Assembly (NCBI GenBank): GCA_965262585.1
Contig: OZ253546.1
Coordinates: forward strand, 2,437,894 to 2,501,893
Reading direction: 5' to 3'
Source: Candidatus Poriferihabitaceae bacterium
GTDB taxonomy: Bacteria > Pseudomonadota > Gammaproteobacteria > Arenicellales > Poriferihabitantaceae
Length of the DNA stretch: 64,000 nucleotides
Each line of letters opens with the position of its first letter. Within the stretch, counting starts at the first letter, position 1. The notes under the pieces were generated by a model. That model worked only from the letters and a program-made list of their open reading frames with translations. It was not told the DNA's origin and did no database searches. A program made the position numbers and the translations under genes. Positions 1 through 61,974 of this stretch are shown piece by piece.

Positions 1-829
1 CTGATCCGATGTCTAGATAATCAAACTCAAATTTGGCATCGGTGTCTTCGGACAACACAGCATCGTTCATTCTTACCCAGTGCTTAAGAGGAACTACTTC
101 CCAATGCTTCGGCACATCCCCCAGCCACTCTACACCGGAAAATTTAAGCGAAACATCAGGATCAAGTCCACGAGTAACGGCGTGATGAATGATGGCCTGC
201 TTCTGCTCATCCAGCAGGCCAATCAACTTCTCTTTCGCTCGCACAACCTGCCGTACCCGCCGATCTACATAATCCAAATACCGCACGATGGCGGCTTGCT
301 CGACGAGGGGTGGGAGAAGCGTTGGAATATTACGAACCTTTTCGGCATTTAGGTTTGCTTGTGTACTTGTGGTGGACAACCGAACTACATGCAATCGAAG
401 AAATTCAAGGTAATACAGGCAGTATTCTGCATTAAATTTCCCTTTTTGAGGCTGTATCCCAATGATTGCTTGATTTATAGTAGCATCAATTTCTAATATT
501 GAGACTGTACCTATGCTTGCATACATGGAATATAAAATTGTCCCGGCTGGTAGTAACTCTAAGCCCTTTGATGCTTTGCCTGCTTCTGTGATTGCTTTTT
601 GGGTGTGGCGGATGCGCTGCTGACCGGTCATGTCAGCGATCAATAACCAAGGAATACCTTCACTTGGCGAACAATAAAAGCTTTCCACACCAGAGTGTGG
701 TGTACCCCCGGAGTAAAAGCGTGTTACACAATACTTGAGTGGTCCAACTTCCCAATGCTTCGGCACATCCCCCAGCCATTCAACACCAGATTCTTTCATC
801 GCAGGGTAGGGAACGAGGTTGTTTGTCAT
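1..829 (-). CDS. hsdS: Type I restriction-modification specificity subunit HsdS (start present, 3' end beyond the window edge)
   Basis: Hand translation from ATG 829-827 gives MTNNLVPYPAMKESGVEWLGDVPKHWEVGPLKYCVTR. 231 codons later, in frame, comes ...KLIGLLDEQKQAIIHHAVTRGLDPDVSLKFSGVEWLGDVPKHWEVVPLKHW, the classic HsdS central conserved region followed by a second target-recognition domain. The start overlaps the upstream stop (TAATG). It is absent from the ORF track because it is open to the window edge. Confidence 0.8.
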   Translation of the reverse strand, partial: MTNNLVPYPAMKESGVEWLGDVPKHWEVGPLKYCVTRFYSGGTPHSGVESFYCSPSEGIPWLLIADMTGQQRIRHTQKAITEAGKASKGLELLPAGTILYSMYASIGTVSILEIDATINQAIIGIQPQKGKFNAEYCLYYLEFLRLHVVRLSTTSTQANLNAEKVRNIPTLLPPLVEQAAIVRYLDYVDRRVRQVVRAKEKLIGLLDEQKQAIIHHAVTRGLDPDVSLKFSGVEWLGDVPKHWEVVPLKHWVRMNDAVLSEDTDAKFEFDYLDIGS

Positions 830-2466
830 TAGTTTGTTTCTTCGCCGATACTAGGCAACATATTTTTTAGAGCATTCCGAAACTCCTCACTATTTTTTAC
901 ACATTCTATGACCGCTGCCTCGTAATCATTTCGAGATTGATAATGCAAAGTTTCTGCAATTTTATTGAAAGTTCCACTTTCTCGAACGGGATAGTTGGTT
1001 ATCAAAGCATCAATATCCTTTTCTTGTAAGAAGTTTTGAAATCTTTCTTTTTCTTCGCCAAATGGAGATGGAAAACTCATTTTAATTGTTTCAGTGGGGT
1101 TTGTAAGAATATCTTTCCAATCTGGAATTTTATTAATCGCTGCTCGTTCAATTTTATGGCAACATCTCCGAGCCGCCAACCTGTCGGCATGTCCAGATAA
1201 AACTTGTAACGCACAATCAGTAGTTTGTGACAATAAGTCATTTGCATCCTTGTTTAGTTCTTTCGCCTTATTTGTCGCAATAACAGTGCGTGCTTTTTCT
1301 CCATAGATTAAAGATTCTATGGAAAATATTGGTAACACAAATATGTTGTCATTTTTTAGGGCATCAATCTCTGATTCACTTCGCCCATCATTGTCAATGA
1401 TGCCATAGGCTGAAATCCAATGGAGGTTAGGGTTTTTCTTCAACCCGAGAACAGTCCGAATAACTTCAGAACACCCTCCTACCGGGTGCACTGTAAAATC
1501 AGGATAAATTACTTCGTAGAGTCGGCGGTCTAAACTGTTTGCTGTTCCCTCAACAAAGAGGACTTTCTTTCTTCCGCCGAGGATCGCTCGTCTTGTGTCA
1601 TTTGGAATCTCATCGTCCGATCGCAGCAAATTGGCATCCCATGCTGTTGGTTCGGCACCAGTCCAACAACATTCATGAAGCACCAGAACTTGGGCTTCAC
1701 CTACTGTTTCCACTAAAGATAGTTCATGGGTGAAAATAACGAATGCGCAATCAGATCTTTCAGAAATCAACGCCGACAGCATTGGCGATGCGATTGCACG
1801 ATGGAGATGTTGTTCCGGTTCATCTATAAAAAATATTGTCCCAGTGGGAGAAGATAAAACATGACAGGATAGAATCAATGCATTTCGTTCTCCATCGGAA
1901 ATCTGTGATGCTTCAAAAGTTTTCCCATTCTTGGTTGCTAGGATTTGTTGGGTTGTACTTAATGAAATTTCAGTATTGAACAAACTATGTGCAAAGATAT
2001 TGTTGAGTTTTTCTAGTGGACTATTTTGTTCCTTAAATTCCTTTTCCAGATTCGTGAGTTTCTCTTCCCTATTGTCGTTATGTTCAATAATCGCTCGTCG
2101 TGCCTTTCTCCCAAGTGCATTTTCACTTTCAACTAAGTCAAATAGAGCGTTACTAATCATGGCATCTTGATAAGGATCTGTGTATCTAGATTGGCTGATT
2201 CTTTGAGAAATCGCATAGTACTTTTCCGTCTCGTCACGTTGACTTGGAGATATGTTTACGGCGCTTGATTCCATCCAGTTTCTCCGGTGCGCGCGAAGTA
2301 TTTTTATGTTATCACCTTCAGTTTTTGCCCAATGCGACAGAAGTGCAGATTTTCCTGACCCGTTAGGGCCAACCACGAATAGTTTTGAGCCCTTGCTTAA
2401 ACTAATAGGCAGTGTCGATTCATCCAGAGTAGGAATTTCTAACTGTATTAACGGTTCTTCTGTCAT
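829..2466 (-). CDS. Fused ABC-type ATPase / DUF4435 (Toprim-like) protein, PARIS (AriA-AriB)- or OLD-like, embedded in the type I R-M operon
   Basis: 545-aa ORF. Walker A is VVGPNGSGKSALL. A long charged, coiled-coil-like insert follows (EEKLTNLEKEFKEQNSPLEKL). The ABC signature-like motif is SDGERNAL, Walker B is IFFIDEPEQHLH, and the H-loop is FTHE. The C-terminal half carries VLFVEGTANSLD ... GGCSEV ... GIIDNDGRS, the E...DxD pattern expected of DUF4435/Toprim. ATGA overlap with the hsdM stop (2463-2466) and TAATG overlap with the hsdS start (827-831). Confidence 0.7.
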   Translation of the reverse strand: MTEEPLIQLEIPTLDESTLPISLSKGSKLFVVGPNGSGKSALLSHWAKTEGDNIKILRAHRRNWMESSAVNISPSQRDETEKYYAISQRISQSRYTDPYQDAMISNALFDLVESENALGRKARRAIIEHNDNREEKLTNLEKEFKEQNSPLEKLNNIFAHSLFNTEISLSTTQQILATKNGKTFEASQISDGERNALILSCHVLSSPTGTIFFIDEPEQHLHRAIASPMLSALISERSDCAFVIFTHELSLVETVGEAQVLVLHECCWTGAEPTAWDANLLRSDDEIPNDTRRAILGGRKKVLFVEGTANSLDRRLYEVIYPDFTVHPVGGCSEVIRTVLGLKKNPNLHWISAYGIIDNDGRSESEIDALKNDNIFVLPIFSIESLIYGEKARTVIATNKAKELNKDANDLLSQTTDCALQVLSGHADRLAARRCCHKIERAAINKIPDWKDILTNPTETIKMSFPSPFGEEKERFQNFLQEKDIDALITNYPVRESGTFNKIAETLHYQSRNDYEAAVIECVKNSEEFRNALKNMLPSIGEETN

Positions 2467-4445
2467 TTTTGTTCTCCTCCTGTAATTTCTTCTAGCAACC
2501 CTTTGCTTTCTTTTTCCAACGCCAAGATATCAGCGCGGATTTCCTCCAGCGAACGCATTGGCCGTGGTTTGTAGAAGTACCGAGTGAAACTGATTTCGTA
2601 GCCGATTTTAACACTTTTCGGGACATACCATGCGTCGGGAGCGTAAGGCAGCACCTCGCGTTTCAGAAAAGCATCAATGCCGCCTTCTTCCAGCAGCGGA
2701 ATCTGCTCGGTGTCGCGCAAGTCGGTGTCGGGTGCGTATTCAACCACGGCCGGTTTGGCGTTGCTGGTGGTTTTAACTAAACCGCACAGGGGATTGGGTT
2801 TGACGCCTTTTGTATGGATTTTTGTGATGACCGGCGGGGCGTCTTCGGTGCGCTCGGCGGTTTCTTTGAGTTTCTTGATTTCGCCGGCTTTGTAGGCACG
2901 CTTCGGATCAATGCCTTTGATGCGCAGCGGGCGTTCAATGGTAACTTTCCAGTAACCAAATTCTTTGTTGTTGAATATTTTGCTTTGTTCGGTTTCTTTG
3001 AAAGCGAGAAAGGTGTCGCAGATGCGTTTGATGTATTCATCGGACAACTCGCAGTTTTTCTTGCCCAGATTTTTACGCAGCGGCTTGTACCATTCCGTTG
3101 CGTCTATCAACTGCACTTTTCCCTTGCGGTGCGCCGGTTTACGGTTGGTCAGCACCCAGATATAGGTGGCGATGCCGGTGTTATAAAACATATTGAGGGG
3201 CAGGGCGACGATCGCCTCGAGCCAGTCATTTTCAATCATCCAGCGGCGGATGTTGCTCTCGCCTTGTCCGGCATCACCGGTGAACAGTGAACTGCCGTTG
3301 TGTACTTCGGCGATGCGGCTGCCAAGTTTGGTGCGGCGTTTCATCTTGCTCAGCATGTTGGCGAGGAAAAGCATCTGGCCATCGCTCGATCGCGTAACCA
3401 GCGAATACTCCGGGTTACCCGCGTGTTCAATCATAAAACGCGAGTCATTGATGTCGCCCTTGCCGCCCATGCGATGCTGGTCGCTTTTCCAACTTTTTCC
3501 GTAGGGCGGATTGCTGAGCATGAAATCAAACTCGAGTGCCTGGAAAGCATCATTGGCAAGTGTCGAGTGTTTCGCTCCGCCAACAATGTTTTCCGCCGCT
3601 GCACCTTCTCCTTTGAGCAGCAGGTCGGCTTTGCAGATGGCGTAGGTCTCGGCGTTAATCTCTTGTCCATAGAGGTGGATGGATACTTGCTTGTCATGCT
3701 TATTAGCAAGGTCTCGCAACGTTTCCTCGGCAACGGTCAGCATACCGCCCGTGCCGCAGGCACCGTCGTATAGCAAATAGGTGCTGGATTTTATAGCATC
3801 GGCAATCGGTAGAAAAATCAACTGTGCCATCAGTTTGACGGCATCGCGCGGCGTCCAGTGTTCGCCTGCCTCTTCGTTGTTCTCTTCGTTGAAACGGCGC
3901 ACCAGTTCTTCAAAGATTGTGCCCATGGCGTGATTATCGAAGCCCGGATGTTTGACCGAGCCGTCATCGTGGAGGACTGGATACGGACTCAGGTTAATGT
4001 CCGGCGACAGGAATTTTTCGATGAGCGTGCCGAGTGCATCCGCTTCCACCAGTTGAGGGATGTCGTTGCGAAACTTAAAGTTTTTCAGGATGTCCTGCAC
4101 GTTCGGTGAGAAGCCGTCGAGATAGGCGATGAAGTCGGCCTTTAATTGTTGCTGGGTGGCGCGCGACTTCAAGTCACGGAGCGTGAACATTGACTGGTTG
4201 TAGAAAGCCTGCCCCGCGGCTGTGCACAGGGAGGCATCCTGTTGGTCTATCCCACTCTCATCCAGTTGAGATTTCATGTCGAGAACCTTCTGTTTGGTCG
4301 GTTCAAGTACCGCGTCCAGTCGGCGTACTACCGTCATCGGCAGAATTACATCGCGATATTTACTGCGCACGAAAAGATCGCGTAGCACATCATCGGCGAT
4401 GCCCCAGATAAAATTAGTTATCCCGCTCGGGTCGGATTGTTTCAT
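2463..4445 (-). CDS. hsdM: Type I restriction-modification DNA methyltransferase subunit HsdM
   Basis: 660-aa ORF. The AdoMet motif is LLYDGACGTGGML and the N6-adenine catalytic motif is LSNPPYGKSW. The N-terminus (ITNFIWGIADDVLRD) is HsdM_N-like. Confidence 0.9.
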   Translation of the reverse strand: MKQSDPSGITNFIWGIADDVLRDLFVRSKYRDVILPMTVVRRLDAVLEPTKQKVLDMKSQLDESGIDQQDASLCTAAGQAFYNQSMFTLRDLKSRATQQQLKADFIAYLDGFSPNVQDILKNFKFRNDIPQLVEADALGTLIEKFLSPDINLSPYPVLHDDGSVKHPGFDNHAMGTIFEELVRRFNEENNEEAGEHWTPRDAVKLMAQLIFLPIADAIKSSTYLLYDGACGTGGMLTVAEETLRDLANKHDKQVSIHLYGQEINAETYAICKADLLLKGEGAAAENIVGGAKHSTLANDAFQALEFDFMLSNPPYGKSWKSDQHRMGGKGDINDSRFMIEHAGNPEYSLVTRSSDGQMLFLANMLSKMKRRTKLGSRIAEVHNGSSLFTGDAGQGESNIRRWMIENDWLEAIVALPLNMFYNTGIATYIWVLTNRKPAHRKGKVQLIDATEWYKPLRKNLGKKNCELSDEYIKRICDTFLAFKETEQSKIFNNKEFGYWKVTIERPLRIKGIDPKRAYKAGEIKKLKETAERTEDAPPVITKIHTKGVKPNPLCGLVKTTSNAKPAVVEYAPDTDLRDTEQIPLLEEGGIDAFLKREVLPYAPDAWYVPKSVKIGYEISFTRYFYKPRPMRSLEEIRADILALEKESKGLLEEITGGEQK

Positions 4446-4537
4446 TGGTTATCCACGGTTATTTTTGATTGGAGCATTTTAGGTATGGGTTGCGGGCGGC
4501 ATCACGGCAAGCATCCGCCGCCAAGCCTGTGAAGACC

Positions 4538-7500
4538 TCACCCCGCCCACTCCCGCCAGCCCTGCAACGCTGGGAAGTATAAACCTAATTTGATTTCGGT
4601 CGGTTGTAACTGGGTGACGATGGCGGCGTATTGGGATAGTTGGTTTTGGTGGCGGTCTACTTCGCGGGTTAGGAATGCTTCGGGGTTGGCGCCTTCGTGG
4701 CGGCTGGATTTGAAGTCGATGATCCAGCGGATGCCTTGTGGGTCGGTGAAACTGCGGTCGATGATGATGTGTACGATTTTGCCGTCAACGGTGCCGCTGA
4801 GTGGCCATTCGCTTTTGATGTCGCGGTGTTCGGCGGAGAATATCCACGCGGCTTTGGGGTCGTTGCGGGTTTGTTCGATGGCCTCGGTTACTCGCGCAAG
4901 GGCGGCTTCAAGGTGCGGCCCGTAAATGCCGTTTTCCATGAGCAGGGTGCGGCAGTGGGTTTGTTGTTCATCCGCTGCTTGCCCGCACCAATGTTCCCAG
5001 CCGTGGTCGTCTACGCGCTGCAAAATTTGATGAATGACGACTCCGGCGACTCGCGCGGTTTCACCGGCCCAGGAAAATTCGATGGCTTCGGTTTCATCCG
5101 CCGCCGCATCGGTGGTACCGGTCCCGGTGAGTATGCCTTGCGGCAACGACGGCGGTCGCCATTCCTGCGGCAGTTTTTGCACGGGTTGGGGTTGGAACGG
5201 AACGGGTTCGTTTGTATCTATGACCTCGCCAACCTCGCCGTCTTCAGCATCATTGGCGGCGGCCGCTTCAGCATACTTTTCACGCAACGCCGGCCACAGC
5301 AGCGACAGCAGGGAAGTGGGGGTCGGTGTCGCGAGTTCGCCATTGGTTTCCCGGGCGCTGCCGAATAGGTGCAGGGTTTTCTTTGCGCGGGTGCAGGCGA
5401 CGTACAGCAGCCTGCACAATTCATTGTGGGTGTGGATTTTTTCCAGATGCTCGAGGTAGGGATAAAAGGCGTCGTCTTGTTCGGTGCTCGATGGCAGCGG
5501 CGCGGTTAACAGTTGTCGGGGTAGTTTGTGCCAACGCAACAAGGTTTTTTCTGGGCTGCGCGGGCGGCGGTCGAGACGCGGCAGGAATACGGTGTCGAAT
5601 TCCAACCCTTTGGCTTTGTGAATGCTCAGCAACTGCACCCGCGCATCGGCGCCGCCCCGTGCCCAAAGATTGTCGGTGGCTTGTTTCAAATTGTCGGCGG
5701 TAATCTCTATTCCGCCGGATTCCATTTCGCTGAGTAGGTCGAAGTATCGTTGGCAGTCATCGAGAGCGGATGCTTCGACGGTGGCCGGCCCGCCGAGACA
5801 AAGCCACGCGGCTTCGACGTTTTGTCGGATGCCAATTCGGCCACGGCGGCGAAGTGCCGGGGCGAGGGAATCGGCCAGGTGTTTCAATCTCGCCCGGCCT
5901 TCTTCGGACAAGGTCGCCAGCACCGCATCATCCCGCCAGCGTTCCAGAATCGTTGCGGCGTGGTTGGTGGCGGCGAGGACGGTGAGGTCGTGAAGACTCA
6001 ACCCACACCACGGCGCGCGCAGCAGGCTAAGCCAGGCGATGCGGTCGGCGGGCTGGGCGAGGGCGCGGGTGATGGCGAGCAAATCCCGAATGGCCGGGCG
6101 GTCGTTGAGTTTTTCCATATCCACGGCTTGAAACGCAACCCCTTGTCGGCGAAGGGCGGCGGCGATGTCGTGCAAATGCCCGCGACTGCGTCCCAGTATG
6201 GCGATGGATTGTTCGGGTTCCTGTTGTTGCGCCTGCTTGACCAGAGTCGCCACGGCCTCCGCTTCACGCGCGGCGTCTCGGTCGATGGCGGCGTGAATGT
6301 GAACCGCGCCGTTTGGGTCGGTGGTGTGTGCCGTGGCGTGCGCATAACTGACCGCGCCGTTGATGATGTCGTCCCGGGGCGGCATAACGCCCTGAAAGGT
6401 TTGGTTGAACCACTCCACCAACGCCGGTGCGGAGCGGAAGTTGGATTCAAGGACAATGGATTCGGGGTGTAAGTCTCCCAGCCCGACCTGCTGGACTTGC
6501 AAGAAATTGGCGACCTCGGCTTCGCGAAAGCGGTAAATGGACTGCATCGGATCGCCCACCAGAAACAATGTGCGCCCGTCTCCATTCTGCCAACCGGCGG
6601 TCAGTTTGATGAGCAGATCGAGGTGCGCGCTGGAAGTGTCTTGAAACTCATCCATTAGCACATGCCCGAGGCGGTAATCGAAGGCCAATGCAAGGTCGGA
6701 CGGCGCATCCTCTTCGCCGAGCGCCAACGCCGCGCGCTGGGTGAGTTCGATATAGTCGGCTTGATTTTGAGATTTGAAGAGAAGCCTCAGTTCCGCCGCC
6801 GCCAGCGGTAGCAAGCGCATCAAGGCATCTATGGAGCGCCATTGTGTATCGCTGAATTTCGCCCCCGGTAGCAGGCGCGCGGTTGCCAATACATCCACCA
6901 ATTCGTCCATCAATTCGGTTTGTTCGGATAACCCGTCCAGCAGCGCGAGCATGCGCGTTTTTACGTCCCGGTCTGAGTCGCTATCCACGGGAAAGCCCTG
7001 GTTTTTGTTCACGGTCTTTCGCAGTGTGCCGGTCCCGGTCAACAGTAAATCTGCGATGCCACGCCATTGCTCGATGTAGCGGTGATTGGCTTCGGGGAAA
7101 CTTTGTGCGCCGTGCAAGGCCGATACCTTTGTAACCTTGCCGGCGGCTTGCAATTTGCCCGCCGCAAAAGCACCCAATTCGGCCAGTTCCGTTTGCAATG
7201 ATGGCGGGATTATCGCTACCGCACGCTGCAATTCCGCATCCACCACTTGTTGCCACATCGCTTCAAGGTGCGCGCGGTCGGGTAGCACGGGCAGCCCGGT
7301 CAGGCGCATCCACTTGTCGCGTTTCGCCAGCATGTCGGCGAGCAGGGCGCGCGCTTTGTTCCAATCGGCGTCCACCACCGCCAGCAAATGTTCACAAGCA
7401 TCCGCGCAATCGGAGTCTTGATCGACATGTTCCAGAGCAAGGTTTGCCGCCCGGCGGTATAGCGGTGCGGCGGCGTCCACGATCTTCGGTGGCGAACCGA

Positions 7501-7900
7501 AGCGCGCCGACCACGGCATCTGCCGCACCAGTTCATTACAAAAAGCATCGATGGTTTGAATCCGCAGCCGCCGGGTGTTGGCGGTGATACGCCAGTTATG
7601 TCGATGGTCGTTGGCTAGCGCGGCATCGGCGATGGCGAGGATTTCCGGGTTGTCCTCCGGGTCGCCATTTTCCTTGATCCGCTTGAGCGCGTTGCTGATG
7701 CGCAAGCGCATTTCCGCGGTGGCCTTTTTGGTGAAGGTGATGGCGAGGATTTGCTCCGGTTCATCGACCTTGGCAAGTAACGCCAGATAGCGGCGCACCA
7801 GCAATTCGGTTTTACCGGATCCGGCGGGTGCCTGAACGATGAACGATTCCTTCGGGTTGAGGACGCGTTGTCGTTGCGCGTGGTCGGGGGGCAGGGCCAT
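4538..7900 (-). CDS. addA: AddA-type helicase-nuclease (UvrD/REP helicase plus C-terminal PD-(D/E)XK nuclease)
   Basis: 1120 aa. Walker A is QAPAGSGKTELL, with UvrD-like helicase motifs (DEFQDTS, LESNFRS). The C-terminal nuclease motif is RWIIDFKSS. Confidence 0.85.
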   Translation of the reverse strand: MALPPDHAQRQRVLNPKESFIVQAPAGSGKTELLVRRYLALLAKVDEPEQILAITFTKKATAEMRLRISNALKRIKENGDPEDNPEILAIADAALANDHRHNWRITANTRRLRIQTIDAFCNELVRQMPWSARFGSPPKIVDAAAPLYRRAANLALEHVDQDSDCADACEHLLAVVDADWNKARALLADMLAKRDKWMRLTGLPVLPDRAHLEAMWQQVVDAELQRAVAIIPPSLQTELAELGAFAAGKLQAAGKVTKVSALHGAQSFPEANHRYIEQWRGIADLLLTGTGTLRKTVNKNQGFPVDSDSDRDVKTRMLALLDGLSEQTELMDELVDVLATARLLPGAKFSDTQWRSIDALMRLLPLAAAELRLLFKSQNQADYIELTQRAALALGEEDAPSDLALAFDYRLGHVLMDEFQDTSSAHLDLLIKLTAGWQNGDGRTLFLVGDPMQSIYRFREAEVANFLQVQQVGLGDLHPESIVLESNFRSAPALVEWFNQTFQGVMPPRDDIINGAVSYAHATAHTTDPNGAVHIHAAIDRDAAREAEAVATLVKQAQQQEPEQSIAILGRSRGHLHDIAAALRRQGVAFQAVDMEKLNDRPAIRDLLAITRALAQPADRIAWLSLLRAPWCGLSLHDLTVLAATNHAATILERWRDDAVLATLSEEGRARLKHLADSLAPALRRRGRIGIRQNVEAAWLCLGGPATVEASALDDCQRYFDLLSEMESGGIEITADNLKQATDNLWARGGADARVQLLSIHKAKGLEFDTVFLPRLDRRPRSPEKTLLRWHKLPRQLLTAPLPSSTEQDDAFYPYLEHLEKIHTHNELCRLLYVACTRAKKTLHLFGSARETNGELATPTPTSLLSLLWPALREKYAEAAAANDAEDGEVGEVIDTNEPVPFQPQPVQKLPQEWRPPSLPQGILTGTGTTDAAADETEAIEFSWAGETARVAGVVIHQILQRVDDHGWEHWCGQAADEQQTHCRTLLMENGIYGPHLEAALARVTEAIEQTRNDPKAAWIFSAEHRDIKSEWPLSGTVDGKIVHIIIDRSFTDPQGIRWIIDFKSSRHEGANPEAFLTREVDRHQNQLSQYAAIVTQLQPTEIKLGLYFPALQGWREWAG

Positions 7901-7909
7901 GGTTGAAAT

Positions 7910-10687
7910 TTAGTCTTCCGAGTCGCCGCCGATGCGACACAAGCCGTGCAGGTCGCACTGCGCGCAGATGCTCGGGTTGAGCGGATCGACGCGCGCTTCG
8001 CCGTCGAGAAATTCCCGCGCCAATTCGGACAACGCCGCGCGCCAATGCGCCATCAATTCATCCCAGTCCGCAAAATCGTTTTTCAGCGTGCTGCTTTGCA
8101 GCGCATGCACTTTGGGGGCGAACTCCGCTTCACGGGCGACTCCGTTGAAACCGCAATCCCCCCGGCGCACCCGTCCGTAGGCAACGGCTTCCACGGCGGT
8201 TTGCCGTGCCAGTGCATACAACGGCAACTGCGGGGATTGCGGACGCGCGCCGCCCCAGTTGGCGAGGCTGGCCGGGAGGCCGGTTTTATAGTCGATAAGC
8301 GCAAGGCCGCCGCTTTCCATCTGATCGATGCGGTCCATCTTAAAGGTCAGTTCCAAGCCGTTCAGGTCGAGGGTGGTTTCGGTTTCGGTTTCGCCAATCA
8401 CAAACGCACCGGGGCGTTGTTTTTCCATCTCCAGCCATTCGGCAACGGTCGCGCTTGCCCAGCGGATTTGGGTTTGGTGGAAGCGTTCCCCGCAACCGCT
8501 CGACACTCGATAGCGTCGCGCAGATTGTTCAACGGCGGCATCGACAATTTCTTGCAGTCGTTCGGGCGGTAACTCGTGCAGTTCCTTTGATGAGTGAATT
8601 TCCTGCCAGACCAGTTGCAGCGCATGATGAATCAGCGTGCCGCGTTCCCCGGCCCCCAGCCCTTGTTCGTTTTGCTCGATTTCCCGTGCCCCGAGGCGGT
8701 GTATCGCAAAGGCGCGAAACGGGCACTTGGCTTGATTTTCAATCAACGAAATGCCGCCCTTGACCGCACCTGCAGCGCAGGTCGGCCCGTGGGTATCGAT
8801 GAACGCCAACAGTTCGGGTTTGCTGCCGTGGATGAAGGCTGCCGGTGTGTCGAAGTCCGCCGCTGTGACATCCTGCGGGTTGTCGAATGTCGCCGCCAGC
8901 GCGCTCGGCTCCGTTGCGACTTCATCGACCTGTTGTGGATATGAGAGGACGACTTCCGTGCCGCTTGCGATGAGCCGTTGTTGCTGAGTGGCGGCGTATT
9001 CGTTATTGGCTTCCAGCGATGCGTCAAAAACCCCGGCTTGGCGTTGCAGGGGGAGGGCGATGAACGGATTGGGGCGCTGCGCCGGTGGCCAGTGGGCTTC
9101 CACCAGTTCGCCAAACCAGATGCCGTCGAATTGCTGTCCGGCGGCCTCCACAACGCCGAGTACCTGAACCTGCGTGTCCCCGGCTTGTACCTGAAACGGC
9201 TGCTCGTCAACCCTACGCCGCAGCCATCCCAATGCCGTGGCGGCGTTCATCGGCGCGCCGGTGAGGTCGAGCAGGGCGAGGTTTCGCAGTTGTCGGCGAA
9301 AGGCGCGCCCGGCTTGAAATTCATCGCTGTCCAGTCCGCGCTCGCCGGGCCATCCCAGGGCATCGAGCCATTGCCCGAAGTGTTGGGCCCAGTGGGCGGC
9401 GGATTGAGATTTGCCGCTATCTTCGAGCAGCGGCAGGGCGGCATTCAAGGCTTCAATCAGCAGTGGGCAATGGGGGCCGTGGGCGTTGCGTTGGTCGGGG
9501 GCAGATTGGTCGGGGGCGGGCAACTCTTTGAGAAACTGCCGAAAACGAATTTGCCACGGTAACCATCGGCGACACCACGCTTCCAGTTTGGCGCGCGCCA
9601 CCGCTTCCCGGTCGGCGCCGTGAATGAAGGGCGAGCGCATCAGTCGGCAGAGGGAATCCACCGGCAACAATCCGCCCGCCATCGGCGCAAGCGCATCCAT
9701 TGCAGCCCGCGCCACCGCATAACTGCCAAGATTTTTCCCCAGCGAGAGATGCCAGGGCAGGTCGGTGCTCAAGCCGGGTTCGGCGAGTTGTTGCGGGCAT
9801 AGGAGTTGGTGCAATGCGTATTCGATGGCGGTGGCGGATTTGTTGAGATCCGGGGCGATGATGGCGAGGCGGGCGGTGGGATTGGCGAGCAGTTTTTCCC
9901 GCGCCCAGCGCGCCGCGCTTAACCATTGAATAGCCTCGTTGGGATAGCGGTGAAATTCAACTTTTTGGTTGATCGGTGTATCCGGCGCGCCGATTTGGAT
10001 GGCAACGCCGGATTTTTGTAACGTCTCGATGAATGCGTGTTGCTGAGGGAGTAGGTGGTCGAAACCGGCCAATTCGATGTTGGCCAATTCAATGCTGACA
10101 AATCCAATAGACCCGGCAAACAGGCCCGGCGGGTAGCCGTCGTCTCCGAACTGGTCGCGCAAACGCTCGCGCAACCGATCCGCCAGACAATGCGGATCAG
10201 TCCAGTTGTTGGTCGCGCATAGTTGCTGAAATTGCCGCGCCCAGCGCACCATGCATTGATGATCTTCCCGAGGGGATTGGGCGCATTGTTCGAGGTCGAT
10301 GCGCCATGCGTTGAGGATTCGCCATGCGCCGACTGCGGTTTTGGCGGTGGCGTGGATATTCCACAACGGCTCATCGCCGCGCATCCGGCGATGAATGTCG
10401 GCGCGGATGATGTCTTCCCACGCCGCCACAACCTGCGTTTCATCCAGCAAGGTTGCGCCCGGCGTGGTGCCGAGGTTTTGCCAGATACGCCGCAGCCAGT
10501 TATCCCACGACAGTACATCCGCGCTTTCCCATGCCGTTTTGCCGAGGGAAAGTTGATGCCGGTCGAATTGCGCCCGTAGTTCGTGCGCAAGTCGTGCGGT
10601 GGCGGTGATGACGGTGTTGGCGTTTAGCGGTTGCGTGATGGCCGGGGCGGGGGAATCCAGTGGAATAATCCCGGCGTAGCCGGTCAT
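7910..10687 (-). CDS. addB: AddB-type nuclease subunit (PD-(D/E)XK with a C-terminal Cys cluster)
   Basis: The track ORF 7910-10819 overlaps phhB. The internal ATG at 10687 (MTGYAGIIPLD) lies 9 nt after the phhB stop. Nuclease motif LALIDYKTG. Terminal cysteines CAQCDLHGLC plus upstream CPFRAF fit an AddB Fe-S cluster. Confidence 0.8.
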   Translation of the reverse strand: MTGYAGIIPLDSPAPAITQPLNANTVITATARLAHELRAQFDRHQLSLGKTAWESADVLSWDNWLRRIWQNLGTTPGATLLDETQVVAAWEDIIRADIHRRMRGDEPLWNIHATAKTAVGAWRILNAWRIDLEQCAQSPREDHQCMVRWARQFQQLCATNNWTDPHCLADRLRERLRDQFGDDGYPPGLFAGSIGFVSIELANIELAGFDHLLPQQHAFIETLQKSGVAIQIGAPDTPINQKVEFHRYPNEAIQWLSAARWAREKLLANPTARLAIIAPDLNKSATAIEYALHQLLCPQQLAEPGLSTDLPWHLSLGKNLGSYAVARAAMDALAPMAGGLLPVDSLCRLMRSPFIHGADREAVARAKLEAWCRRWLPWQIRFRQFLKELPAPDQSAPDQRNAHGPHCPLLIEALNAALPLLEDSGKSQSAAHWAQHFGQWLDALGWPGERGLDSDEFQAGRAFRRQLRNLALLDLTGAPMNAATALGWLRRRVDEQPFQVQAGDTQVQVLGVVEAAGQQFDGIWFGELVEAHWPPAQRPNPFIALPLQRQAGVFDASLEANNEYAATQQQRLIASGTEVVLSYPQQVDEVATEPSALAATFDNPQDVTAADFDTPAAFIHGSKPELLAFIDTHGPTCAAGAVKGGISLIENQAKCPFRAFAIHRLGAREIEQNEQGLGAGERGTLIHHALQLVWQEIHSSKELHELPPERLQEIVDAAVEQSARRYRVSSGCGERFHQTQIRWASATVAEWLEMEKQRPGAFVIGETETETTLDLNGLELTFKMDRIDQMESGGLALIDYKTGLPASLANWGGARPQSPQLPLYALARQTAVEAVAYGRVRRGDCGFNGVAREAEFAPKVHALQSSTLKNDFADWDELMAHWRAALSELAREFLDGEARVDPLNPSICAQCDLHGLCRIGGDSED

Positions 10688-10695
10688 TATGCGGT

Positions 10696-11010
10696 TTATT
10701 TCGAAATTCGCCCAAGCAGGGCTTCCATATGCCCGGCAAGGTCGAAGTCGAGGCGGGTGATGCCGCCGGATTCGTGGGTGGTCAAATCGACGCGAACGGT
10801 CTTGTAAACATTGAACCACTCAGGATGGTGATTCATTTTCTCCGCCACCAGAGCGGCCCGAGTCATAAAGCCAAATGCTTCGATAAAGTTCCTAAAAATA
10901 AAGGTCTTATGAAGTTTTTCGCTAGTAATTTCCCACTGTTCGACAGCGTCTTTATTGAGCCGCTCGAGGGATTGGCGAATGGCTTCGGCGGATAGTTTTT
11001 CTTCGGGCAT
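10696..11010 (-). CDS. phhB: Pterin-4-alpha-carbinolamine dehydratase
   Basis: 104 aa. [38 protein letters not shown] is the typical PCD/DCoH signature. Confidence 0.9.
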
Positions 11011-55524: not shown

Positions 55525-55601
<77 letters not shown>

Positions 55602-61640: not shown

Positions 61641-61716
61641 TGGCTCCCCGGGACAGACTCGAACTGCCGACAAGGTGGTTAACAGCCACCCGCTCTACCA
61701 ACTGAGCTACCGGGGA
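61641..61716 (-). tRNA. tRNA-Asn (anticodon GUU)
   Basis: The reverse complement folds as a 76-nt cloverleaf: TCCCCGG/CCGGGGA acceptor, anticodon loop CTGTTAA, T-loop TTCGAGT, CCA encoded. Confidence 0.9.
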
Positions 61717-61899: not shown

Positions 61900-61974
61900 G
61901 CGGGTGTCGTATAATGGTTATTACCTGAGCTTCCCATGCTCATGATGACGGTTCGATTCCGTTCACCCGCTCCA
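61900..61974 (+). tRNA. tRNA-Gly (anticodon CCC)
   Basis: 75 nt. GCGGGTG/CACCCGC acceptor, anticodon stem TGAGC/GCTCA with loop TTCCCAT, T-loop TTCGATT, CCA encoded. It resembles E. coli tRNA-Gly(CCC). Confidence 0.85.

Follow-up and report, generated by a model that had tools for sequence, protein, structure and literature searches.

The two-gene PARIS defence system of Escherichia coli B185 consists of an ABC ATPase, AriA (464 amino acids, aa), and a DUF4435/Toprim protein, AriB (about 306 aa) (PDB 8ux9, 8v45-8v49); upon activation, AriB is freed from an AriA hexamer and then dimerises. Defence by E. coli PARIS requires K39 and E393 in the ATPase and E26, D88/E90 and E122 in the Toprim domain. 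Single-gene fusions, ariAB, appear already in the original description of PARIS, for which detection models for them were also built (PMC9122126), and their existence is repeated in later work (PMC11464382, PMC12409363). Genes embedded in type I restriction-modification (R-M), BREX and DISARM operons have been surveyed in a "guilt-by-embedding" preprint (10.1101/2024.01.29.577857), which proposes that Ocr would trigger embedded PARIS or Gabija systems upon inhibition of the surrounding system, and PARIS-like modules are also recruited to BREX loci (PMC12839542). The idea of a backup system that sits in an R-M operon and answers Ocr-like inhibitors is, in short, already published. Here we describe a gene of the fused kind, single-polypeptide PARIS, in a stretch of 64,000 nucleotides (nt) from Candidatus Poriferihabitaceae bacterium (contig OZ253546.1, positions 2,437,894 to 2,501,893; hereafter the window). 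The gene, ariAB (829..2466, minus strand), encodes 545 aa from an ATG start and lies between hsdM and hsdS of a type I R-M operon.

All sequence criteria that we applied place the predicted protein in the fused PARIS class. The PADLOC model for fused AriAB (PDLC02982) matched it end to end (223.5 bits, 1.3e-66, aa 10-538 on profile positions 28-565 of 570), and the separate PADLOC AriA and AriB models each matched their own half, the AriB model (PDLC02983) at aa 299-405 on profile positions 1-109 of 236. Pfam gave AAA_21 at 44.4 bits (cut-off 27, 3.1e-11), AAA_15 at 28.4 bits, which is under its cut-off of 32.1, and DUF4435 (PF14491) at 46.3 bits (cut-off 27, 5.8e-12) over aa 301-405 on profile positions 3-109 of 238, the alignment being restricted to the Toprim half of this last model. 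NCBIfam held no specific model for AriAB and returned only sub-threshold ABC matches. An earlier note, made from the letters of the window, had read the gene as an ABC ATPase fused to a DUF4435/Toprim domain, a PARIS protein of the AriA-AriB kind, and this reading was upheld by Pfam, by the PADLOC AriAB model, by the invariant residues described below and by AriB as the best match in the PDB for the modelled C-terminal half. The DUF4435 domain that the note had placed at residues of about 290-400 was likewise recovered above the Pfam cut-off, at aa 301-405.

The open reading frame (ORF) listing and its translation contain the 545-aa frame with all of the motifs quoted in that note. The N-terminal ABC ATPase domain, of the OLD type (aa 1-284; 1615..2466, minus strand), was delimited by motifs, Foldseek and a profile search, in which AriA (8ux9_B) was matched at 3.9e-6. 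Its motifs are GPNGSGKS at aa 33-40 (Walker A, G33-S40, with K39), SDGERNAL at aa 190-197 (signature-like, S190-R194), FFIDEPEQHLH at aa 212-222 (Walker B, D215/E216) and FTHE at aa 245-248 (H-loop, H247). Within this domain lies a charged helical insert of about aa 65-165 (1972..2274, minus strand), a putative trigger-sensing surface, which in the predicted model is built of helices 74-87, 100-127, 133-146 and 150-160. The DUF4435/Toprim core (aa 299-405; 1252..1572, minus strand), defined by Pfam, PADLOC and invariant acidic residues, carries VLFVEGTANSLD at aa 302-313, GGCSEV at aa 330-335 and IIDNDGRS at aa 356-363, and it is followed by a C-terminal all-helical domain (aa 406-545; 832..1251, minus strand) that is variable, with R434, E472, Y492 and P493 invariant. 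An alignment of 25 homologues, with identities down to 35%, showed that G33, N35, G36, G38, K39, S40, S190-D-G-E-R194, D215/E216 and H247 of the ATPase are invariant. The Toprim-type acidic residues E306, D313, D358, D360 and E384 are invariant in the same alignment, in agreement with the acidic pattern recognised in the earlier note; judging from the register of the family models, they would correspond in order and spacing to the metal-binding set of AriB, E26/D30/D88/E90/E122 (PMC11464382). Conservation is thus found in the catalytic cores, and variation is concentrated in the helical insert and in the C-terminal helices: among the close relatives described below, mean pairwise identity is 0.47-0.48 in the insert versus 0.73-0.80 in the ATPase core. 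By analogy with AriA (PMC11464382), the insert may be the part that senses the trigger.

An AlphaFold model of the whole protein has a mean predicted local distance difference test score (pLDDT) of 87, and its Foldseek matches in the PDB were PtuA, OLD (6p74), GajA and Rad50/SMC heads, with E values of 1e-7 to 1e-5. This search is dominated by ABC ATPase heads and is uninformative on AriA and AriB, so the C-terminal half was modelled separately (aa 286-545, pLDDT 89.7). The top two PDB matches of the separate model were AriB chains, 8ux9_A and 8v46_D; the match to 8ux9_A has an E value of 5.3e-3 and a probability of 0.98 but a weak global superposition (template modelling (TM) scores 0.37/0.32), and no other fold gave a better match. 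When the C-terminal half was compared by HMMER with the sequences of solved structures, whether singly or as a profile of 19 sequences, E. coli AriB was not recovered and the matches were chance ones. The relationship with AriB is distant, and it is based on the Pfam and PADLOC family models together with Foldseek.

The genes on either side of ariAB are those of a type I R-M system. Upstream, hsdM (2463..4445, minus strand; 660 aa) encodes the methyltransferase subunit, identified by N6_Mtase (2.7e-52) and HsdM_N (1.7e-22) in Pfam and by MTase_I (8.1e-243) in PADLOC. Downstream, the specificity subunit gene hsdS (1..829, minus strand) is cut by the start of the window, which contains only its 5' part (276 aa), identified by Methylase_S (5.5e-16, Pfam) and Specificity_I (3.2e-75, PADLOC). 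The start codon of ariAB (ATG, 2466..2464) overlaps the hsdM stop codon (TGA, 2465..2463) in an ATGA at 2463..2466, and its stop codon (TAA, 831..829) overlaps the hsdS start codon (ATG, 829..827) in a TAATG at 827..831, both on the minus strand. The overlaps claimed in the earlier note are both visible in the raw sequence, and its reading of hsdM, ariAB and hsdS as an operon with overlapping stops and starts agrees with the sequence, Pfam and PADLOC. A Shine-Dalgarno-like run, GGAGGAG (2474..2480, minus strand), is found 7 nt upstream of the ariAB ATG, inside the 3' end of hsdM, and a consensus scan of positions 1..5000 detected no terminator- or promoter-like signals above shuffled sequences in the three-gene block. 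This gene layout suggests that ariAB is co-transcribed with hsdM and hsdS, and it is probably translationally coupled to both. A sharp step in G+C content (GC) was observed at the junction of hsdM and ariAB, the values being 0.40 for ariAB, 0.52 for hsdM and 0.60 for the flank.

In order to place the protein in its family, an exhaustive search was carried out over 1.84 billion cluster representatives, the clusters being drawn at 50% identity. The AriAB family comprises at least 903 clusters at E<=1e-30, and another database search gave 328 proteins at E<=1e-5 among the 8000 candidates scored. Because there are hundreds of full-length homologues, a chance ORF can be ruled out for ariAB. Family members have 527-570 aa, and nearly all carry precomputed DUF4435 and AAA_21 matches. 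The 50%-identity cluster of the window protein is represented by P0002; a look-up of the exact protein sequence found no record, and the 91%-identical protein P0001 served for context. The earlier note had considered the gene unusual for its compact size and for being a fusion, and neither point held: its 545 aa lie within the range of a family of at least 903 clusters, and single-gene ariAB was published together with PARIS itself and has its own detection models (PMC9122126).

Eighty distant relatives from species-representative genomes, with 30-38% identity, were fetched with their flanks, many of them metagenome-assembled genomes labelled Poribacteria, Chloroflexota or Dehalococcoidia. Their contexts were analysed by tblastn for HsdM, HsdS and HsdR and, in 75 relatives, by Pfam scans of the immediate neighbours. 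The order hsdM-X-hsdS, with X the family gene, was found in none of these 75. Two distant relatives (L028 and L031) have hsdS directly upstream, the second in the order hsdM-hsdS-X-hsdR, and three come after methyltransferase-nucleases of about 1200 aa of the Eco57I/TaqI_C type. The downstream neighbour is a TPR protein in eight and a TIR protein in four, the remainder having unrelated neighbours, and on large plasmids the family gene stands alone. The position between hsdM and hsdS, which the earlier note had also singled out, is therefore rare in the family, but embedding of such genes in R-M operons was already known.

Plasmid and phage records agreed with these findings. In a mobilizable Rop-type plasmid of 5330 bp (L093, NZ_CP041680.1), and in some 20 E. 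coli and Salmonella plasmids like it (5.3-6.5 kb), the sole large cargo gene encodes a homologue of AriAB with 30% identity, which is annotated "AAA family ATPase". The Oenococcus phage phi9805 encodes a weaker relative, with 27% identity over 79% of the query. Split versions occur on a Rhizobium binae plasmid (L091:3205-4831) and on a C. coli plasmid (L092:3923-5430), each encoding the DUF4435 part, which aligns to window residues 273-544, apart from a short ATP-binding protein; in the latter the AAA ATPase and DUF4435 ORFs overlap, and in other Campylobacter plasmids the gene is single and intact. These two cases may be either natural fission/fusion or frameshifts.

The close relatives give a different picture. 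The close clade comprises eight loci, namely the window and seven relatives, which have 53-91% identity and come from four ENA metagenome assemblies. In seven of the eight, ariAB lies immediately before hsdS, in a type I operon whose first gene is hsdM; six of these seven have the TAATG overlap, and in the other (L085) the genes are 2 nt apart. At the remaining locus (L084), which comes after a Type ISP enzyme and a TPR gene, hsdS is reduced to a 5' remnant: a 37-aa ORF (L084:9584-9697) follows ariAB, keeps the TAATG junction and begins MINNLAPYPAMKDS, the first 14 residues of HsdS. Counting this locus, the TAATG junction is found in seven of the eight, and all eight loci have, or had, ariAB directly before hsdS. 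The other slots of the operon vary. Between hsdM and ariAB there is nothing in the window and in L001, where the ATGA junction is also found, a 300-nt gap in L082, a Fic gene in L087, SLFN/AlbA, Fic and KAP NTPase genes in L085, and DEAD helicase and DprA/LDcluster4 genes in L083 and L086. The slot between hsdS and hsdR contains DarT-DarG, a Macro-domain gene alone, or a 314-aa protein with PIN. In all eight loci the GC of ariAB is 0.38-0.40, compared with 0.51-0.53 for hsdM, 0.51-0.56 for hsdR and 0.60 for the flank; this low GC was retained in every locus although the proteins have diverged to 53% identity. Within the clade, ariAB proteins are about 55-60% identical, versus about 76% for hsdM and about 72% for hsdR. 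The faster divergence of ariAB, together with its variable insert and C-terminal helices, is as expected of a sensor.

The closest locus, L001, extends beyond what the window contains. Its DNA is about 98% identical to that of the window from a UvrD-like gene through ariAB, and divergence is confined to the first target-recognition domain of hsdS. Along the window, identity to L001 is about 40% at positions of about 300-700 and returns to 85% at 100-199, the most divergent part being about 200-800. The difference between the two is a specificity-domain swap between near-identical operons. As L001 is so similar and reads hsdM-ariAB-hsdS-darT-darG-hsdR-fic, the window operon probably continues likewise past the window edge, where hsdR would be located. 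In L001, the slot between hsdS and hsdR is occupied by DarT and a Macro-domain DarG, with the Fic gene after them (L001:12990-14712), giving two embedded systems in the operon.

A further feature of the clade is the recurrence, within the interval from hsdM to ariAB of relatives, of partial copies of the 3' end of hsdM, which are 31-123 nt long and 68-97% identical. We counted four copies in L085 (repeat span L085:2816-6889), three in L083 (L083:2957-7985), two in L082 (L082:7574-7968) and two in L086 (L086:3124-7653), and one each in the window, L001 and L087. The copies of L085 precede Fic, KAP NTPase and AriAB in turn, and L083, L082 and L086 have an extra copy in or near the upstream region of AriAB. 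The repeated 3' ends suggest that cassettes enter the slot between hsdM and ariAB by recombination on hsdM 3' homology, and also that the direct overlap of the two genes in the window may be the ancestral state. No description of such stacking of hsdM 3' ends was found in the literature searched. The same interval also contains tandem repeats, with units of 40 nt and AAGGCAGCGTTTAGTATGG-like cores in L083 (7635-7777) and L087 (6669-6773) and units of about 75 nt in L085 (3132-3317), which are possible regulator binding sites or recombination scars.

Taking these results together, we consider it probable that AriAB is an intact fused PARIS nuclease that is read with hsdM and hsdS, senses phage and aborts infection. 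The protein would consist of two parts, an N-terminal ABC ATPase of the OLD type, into which the variable helical insert is set, and a metal-dependent DUF4435/Toprim nuclease at the C terminus; encoded on a shared transcript, it would be produced at all times together with the type I methyltransferase. Homology suggests that the ATPase part may keep the nuclease inactive and sense a phage protein, for which an anti-restriction DNA mimic such as Ocr is the likeliest precedent. Since sensor and effector are in one chain, release of free AriB is impossible, and activation would therefore proceed through a change of conformation or of oligomeric state, like that of OLD and GajA. Once switched on, the Toprim nuclease would damage tRNA, following the precedent of AriB, or another nucleic acid; translation and growth would stop, and the infection would abort. 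Trigger, substrate and abortive outcome are here proposed by analogy with two-gene PARIS (PMC9122126, PMC11464382, PMC10802264, PMC12409363). Several points weigh against this explanation. In the literature searched, the existence of fused PARIS was mentioned but no experiment with such a protein was found, and trigger and substrate are for this reason extrapolated from the two-gene E. coli B185 system. Similarity to E. coli B185 AriB is below HMMER detection, and the Foldseek match to AriB is weak globally (TM 0.37, E 5e-3). The ATPase part, of about 285 aa versus 464 aa in AriA, is without most of the long insert of the Ocr-binding pore, and, being about 180 aa shorter, it may sense a different ligand. 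Finally, most family members adjoin no R-M system, so a functional tie to restriction is not a property of the family.

Another reading has a real but minor chance of being correct, in which AriAB is an OLD- or Gabija-like ATPase-Toprim nuclease whose trigger and substrate are unrelated to restriction, for instance one that nicks or degrades DNA on nucleotide depletion, RecBCD inhibition or another phage cue, and that is carried in the R-M operon only through "genomic sink" tolerance and co-travel. The full model does match OLD 6p74 (542 aligned columns) and GajA 8u7i/8x5i with E values of about 1e-7 to 1e-6, most of the 75 distant relatives are alone, beside TPR, TIR or type IIG genes, or on small plasmids, and the GC of 0.38-0.40 against 0.51-0.56 in hsdM and hsdR of all eight loci is that of a foreign insert. 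On the other hand, the Toprim half is of the DUF4435/AriB kind, with no OLD-type Toprim family among the Pfam matches at E<=1, and GajA models match only aa 176-265. Moreover, ariAB stays at the start of hsdS in all eight close-clade loci while other slots of the operon vary, which is more than passive co-location. A further reading is that of an R-M-dedicated lineage of fused PARIS in which ariAB-hsdS is a coupled unit and a PrrC-like guard of HsdM2S, the boundary between M and S is a true cassette site, and genes are gained and stacked by recombination between hsdM 3' repeats and the conserved 5' end of hsdS; to this combined reading we give a small chance.

A physical guard of this kind, docked on and silenced by HsdM2-HsdS and firing when an anti-restriction protein disables the R-M complex, would sense the state of the R-M enzyme and not the phage protein directly. 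The 1-nt stop/start overlap with hsdS is kept in seven of the eight loci whatever separates hsdM and ariAB, which would favour co-translational assembly, and PrrC-EcoprrI offers a precedent (10.1101/2024.01.29.577857; PMC12707154). Such a guard is nevertheless very unlikely here: contact with HsdM or HsdS is purely hypothetical, the two-gene form of PARIS needs no R-M system and binds Ocr itself (PMC11464382), and the wider AriAB family is mostly R-M-independent. It is hardly credible, finally, that AriAB serves the R-M enzyme as an accessory or regulatory ATPase, or that it is a decaying passenger without a role in defence. The NCBIfam model TIGR04435, "restriction system-associated AAA family ATPase", gave a faint match (E 3.7e-4, 19 bits) that points to an accessory role, but it is far under the 300-bit cut-off of the family and spans 47 residues. 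The ORF is intact and of full length, all catalytic residues are present, and the protein is 91% identical to P0001 in a stretch otherwise about 98% identical in DNA, all of which is at odds with a decaying passenger. The fused PARIS nuclease that senses phage and aborts infection remains the explanation that we favour.

Directly upstream of hsdM, on the same strand, lies a gene for a UvrD-like helicase of 1120 aa (4538-7900, minus strand), preceded by a 969-aa ORF (7910-10819, minus strand). Their counterparts in L001 carry UvrD-helicase and PDDEXK_1 domains, and the two genes look like an AddA/AddB-type pair. The pair is GC-rich and is syntenic in L001 and partly in L083. As members of the system, the UvrD-like and PD-(D/E)XK genes (4538..10819) were rejected, given a GC of 0.60, like the rest of the flank; in L001, moreover, the genes that come before them carry Pfam domains of metabolism (Ldh_2, adh_short, Pterin_4a). 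The pair probably has a housekeeping role and lies outside the defence operon. No gene for an RptR-like regulator was seen upstream of hsdM among the ORFs of the window or in L001. The sole Rfam matches in the 64-kb window are three tRNA genes (55525-55598, 61644-61716 and 61900-61971), far from the locus.

In summary, the locus would illustrate cleanly how immunity can be layered on a single natural transcript: type I R-M is combined with a PARIS-type suicide nuclease, and the near-identical relative L001 adds DarTG. It raises the question of how a fused sensor-effector is silenced and activated, since the two-gene mechanism needs the release of AriB, and the hsdS-linked clade is well suited to asking whether embedding is functional, through sensing of R-M inhibition, or mere co-transfer. 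Current understanding is unchanged, because the type of system, the fusion and the idea of embedding are all published; what is new is modest, namely the sub-lineage locked to hsdS and the hsdM 3'-end repeats at cassette boundaries in relatives.

Among described modules inside type I operons, RloAB of Campylobacter jejuni is an ABC ATPase and Toprim/OLD module within hsd loci (Miller 2005, as related in PMC10802264). Its embedding is read there as support for a synergy between R-M and PARIS-like backup (PMC10802264). RloAB has two genes and is described there as structurally distinct from PARIS (PMC10802264), and the likeness drawn here is one of description. PrrC in EcoprrI (hsdM-hsdS-prrC-hsdR), the classical guard of this embedded kind, is likewise an ABC-ATPase-based, tRNA-targeting suicide module in a type I operon, triggered by the anti-restriction peptide Stp; it differs in having a HEPN anticodon nuclease as effector, in occupying the slot between hsdS and hsdR and in being silenced by physical binding to the R-M complex. 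PrrC and RloC were absent from the 25 best PADLOC matches of AriAB, whose C-terminal half is DUF4435/Toprim, not HEPN. DarTG2, a defence system of the toxin type, has been characterised between hsdS and hsdR in the RRDM island of enteropathogenic E. coli (PMC12255303), and DarT-DarG of L001 occupies this same slot, downstream of the same ariAB-hsdS unit; DarTG2 differs from ariAB both in system and in slot.

With OLD (class 1) and GajA, AriAB shares an N-terminal ABC ATPase and a C-terminal Toprim in one chain, with Foldseek E values of 3e-7 to 9e-7 (6p74, 8u7i, 8x5i) over more than 500 columns, and by analogy its activation is probably conformational or oligomeric as well. Unlike GajA, it has a Toprim of the DUF4435/AriB type, the PADLOC GajA model (PDLC00075) covering only aa 176-265 at 31.9 bits, and no helicase gene that could be a GajB-type partner adjoins ariAB among the ORFs of the window. 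With two-gene PARIS it shares the combination of ABC ATPase and DUF4435/Toprim, the Walker A lysine, which is K39 in both, and, on the basis of the register, a conserved Toprim acidic set; it differs in being one chain, with an ATPase about 180 aa shorter and a much smaller helical insert, and sequestration and release of the AriA6:AriB3 kind cannot apply as such to the fused protein. With fused PARIS (PADLOC AriAB PDLC02982; the AAA_21+DUF4435 class of Rousset et al. 2022) it shares domain order and length class (545 aa versus 570), and no structural difference was found; the copy in the window belongs to one of at least 903 clusters at 50% identity, a cluster linked to hsdS within operons of type I R-M.

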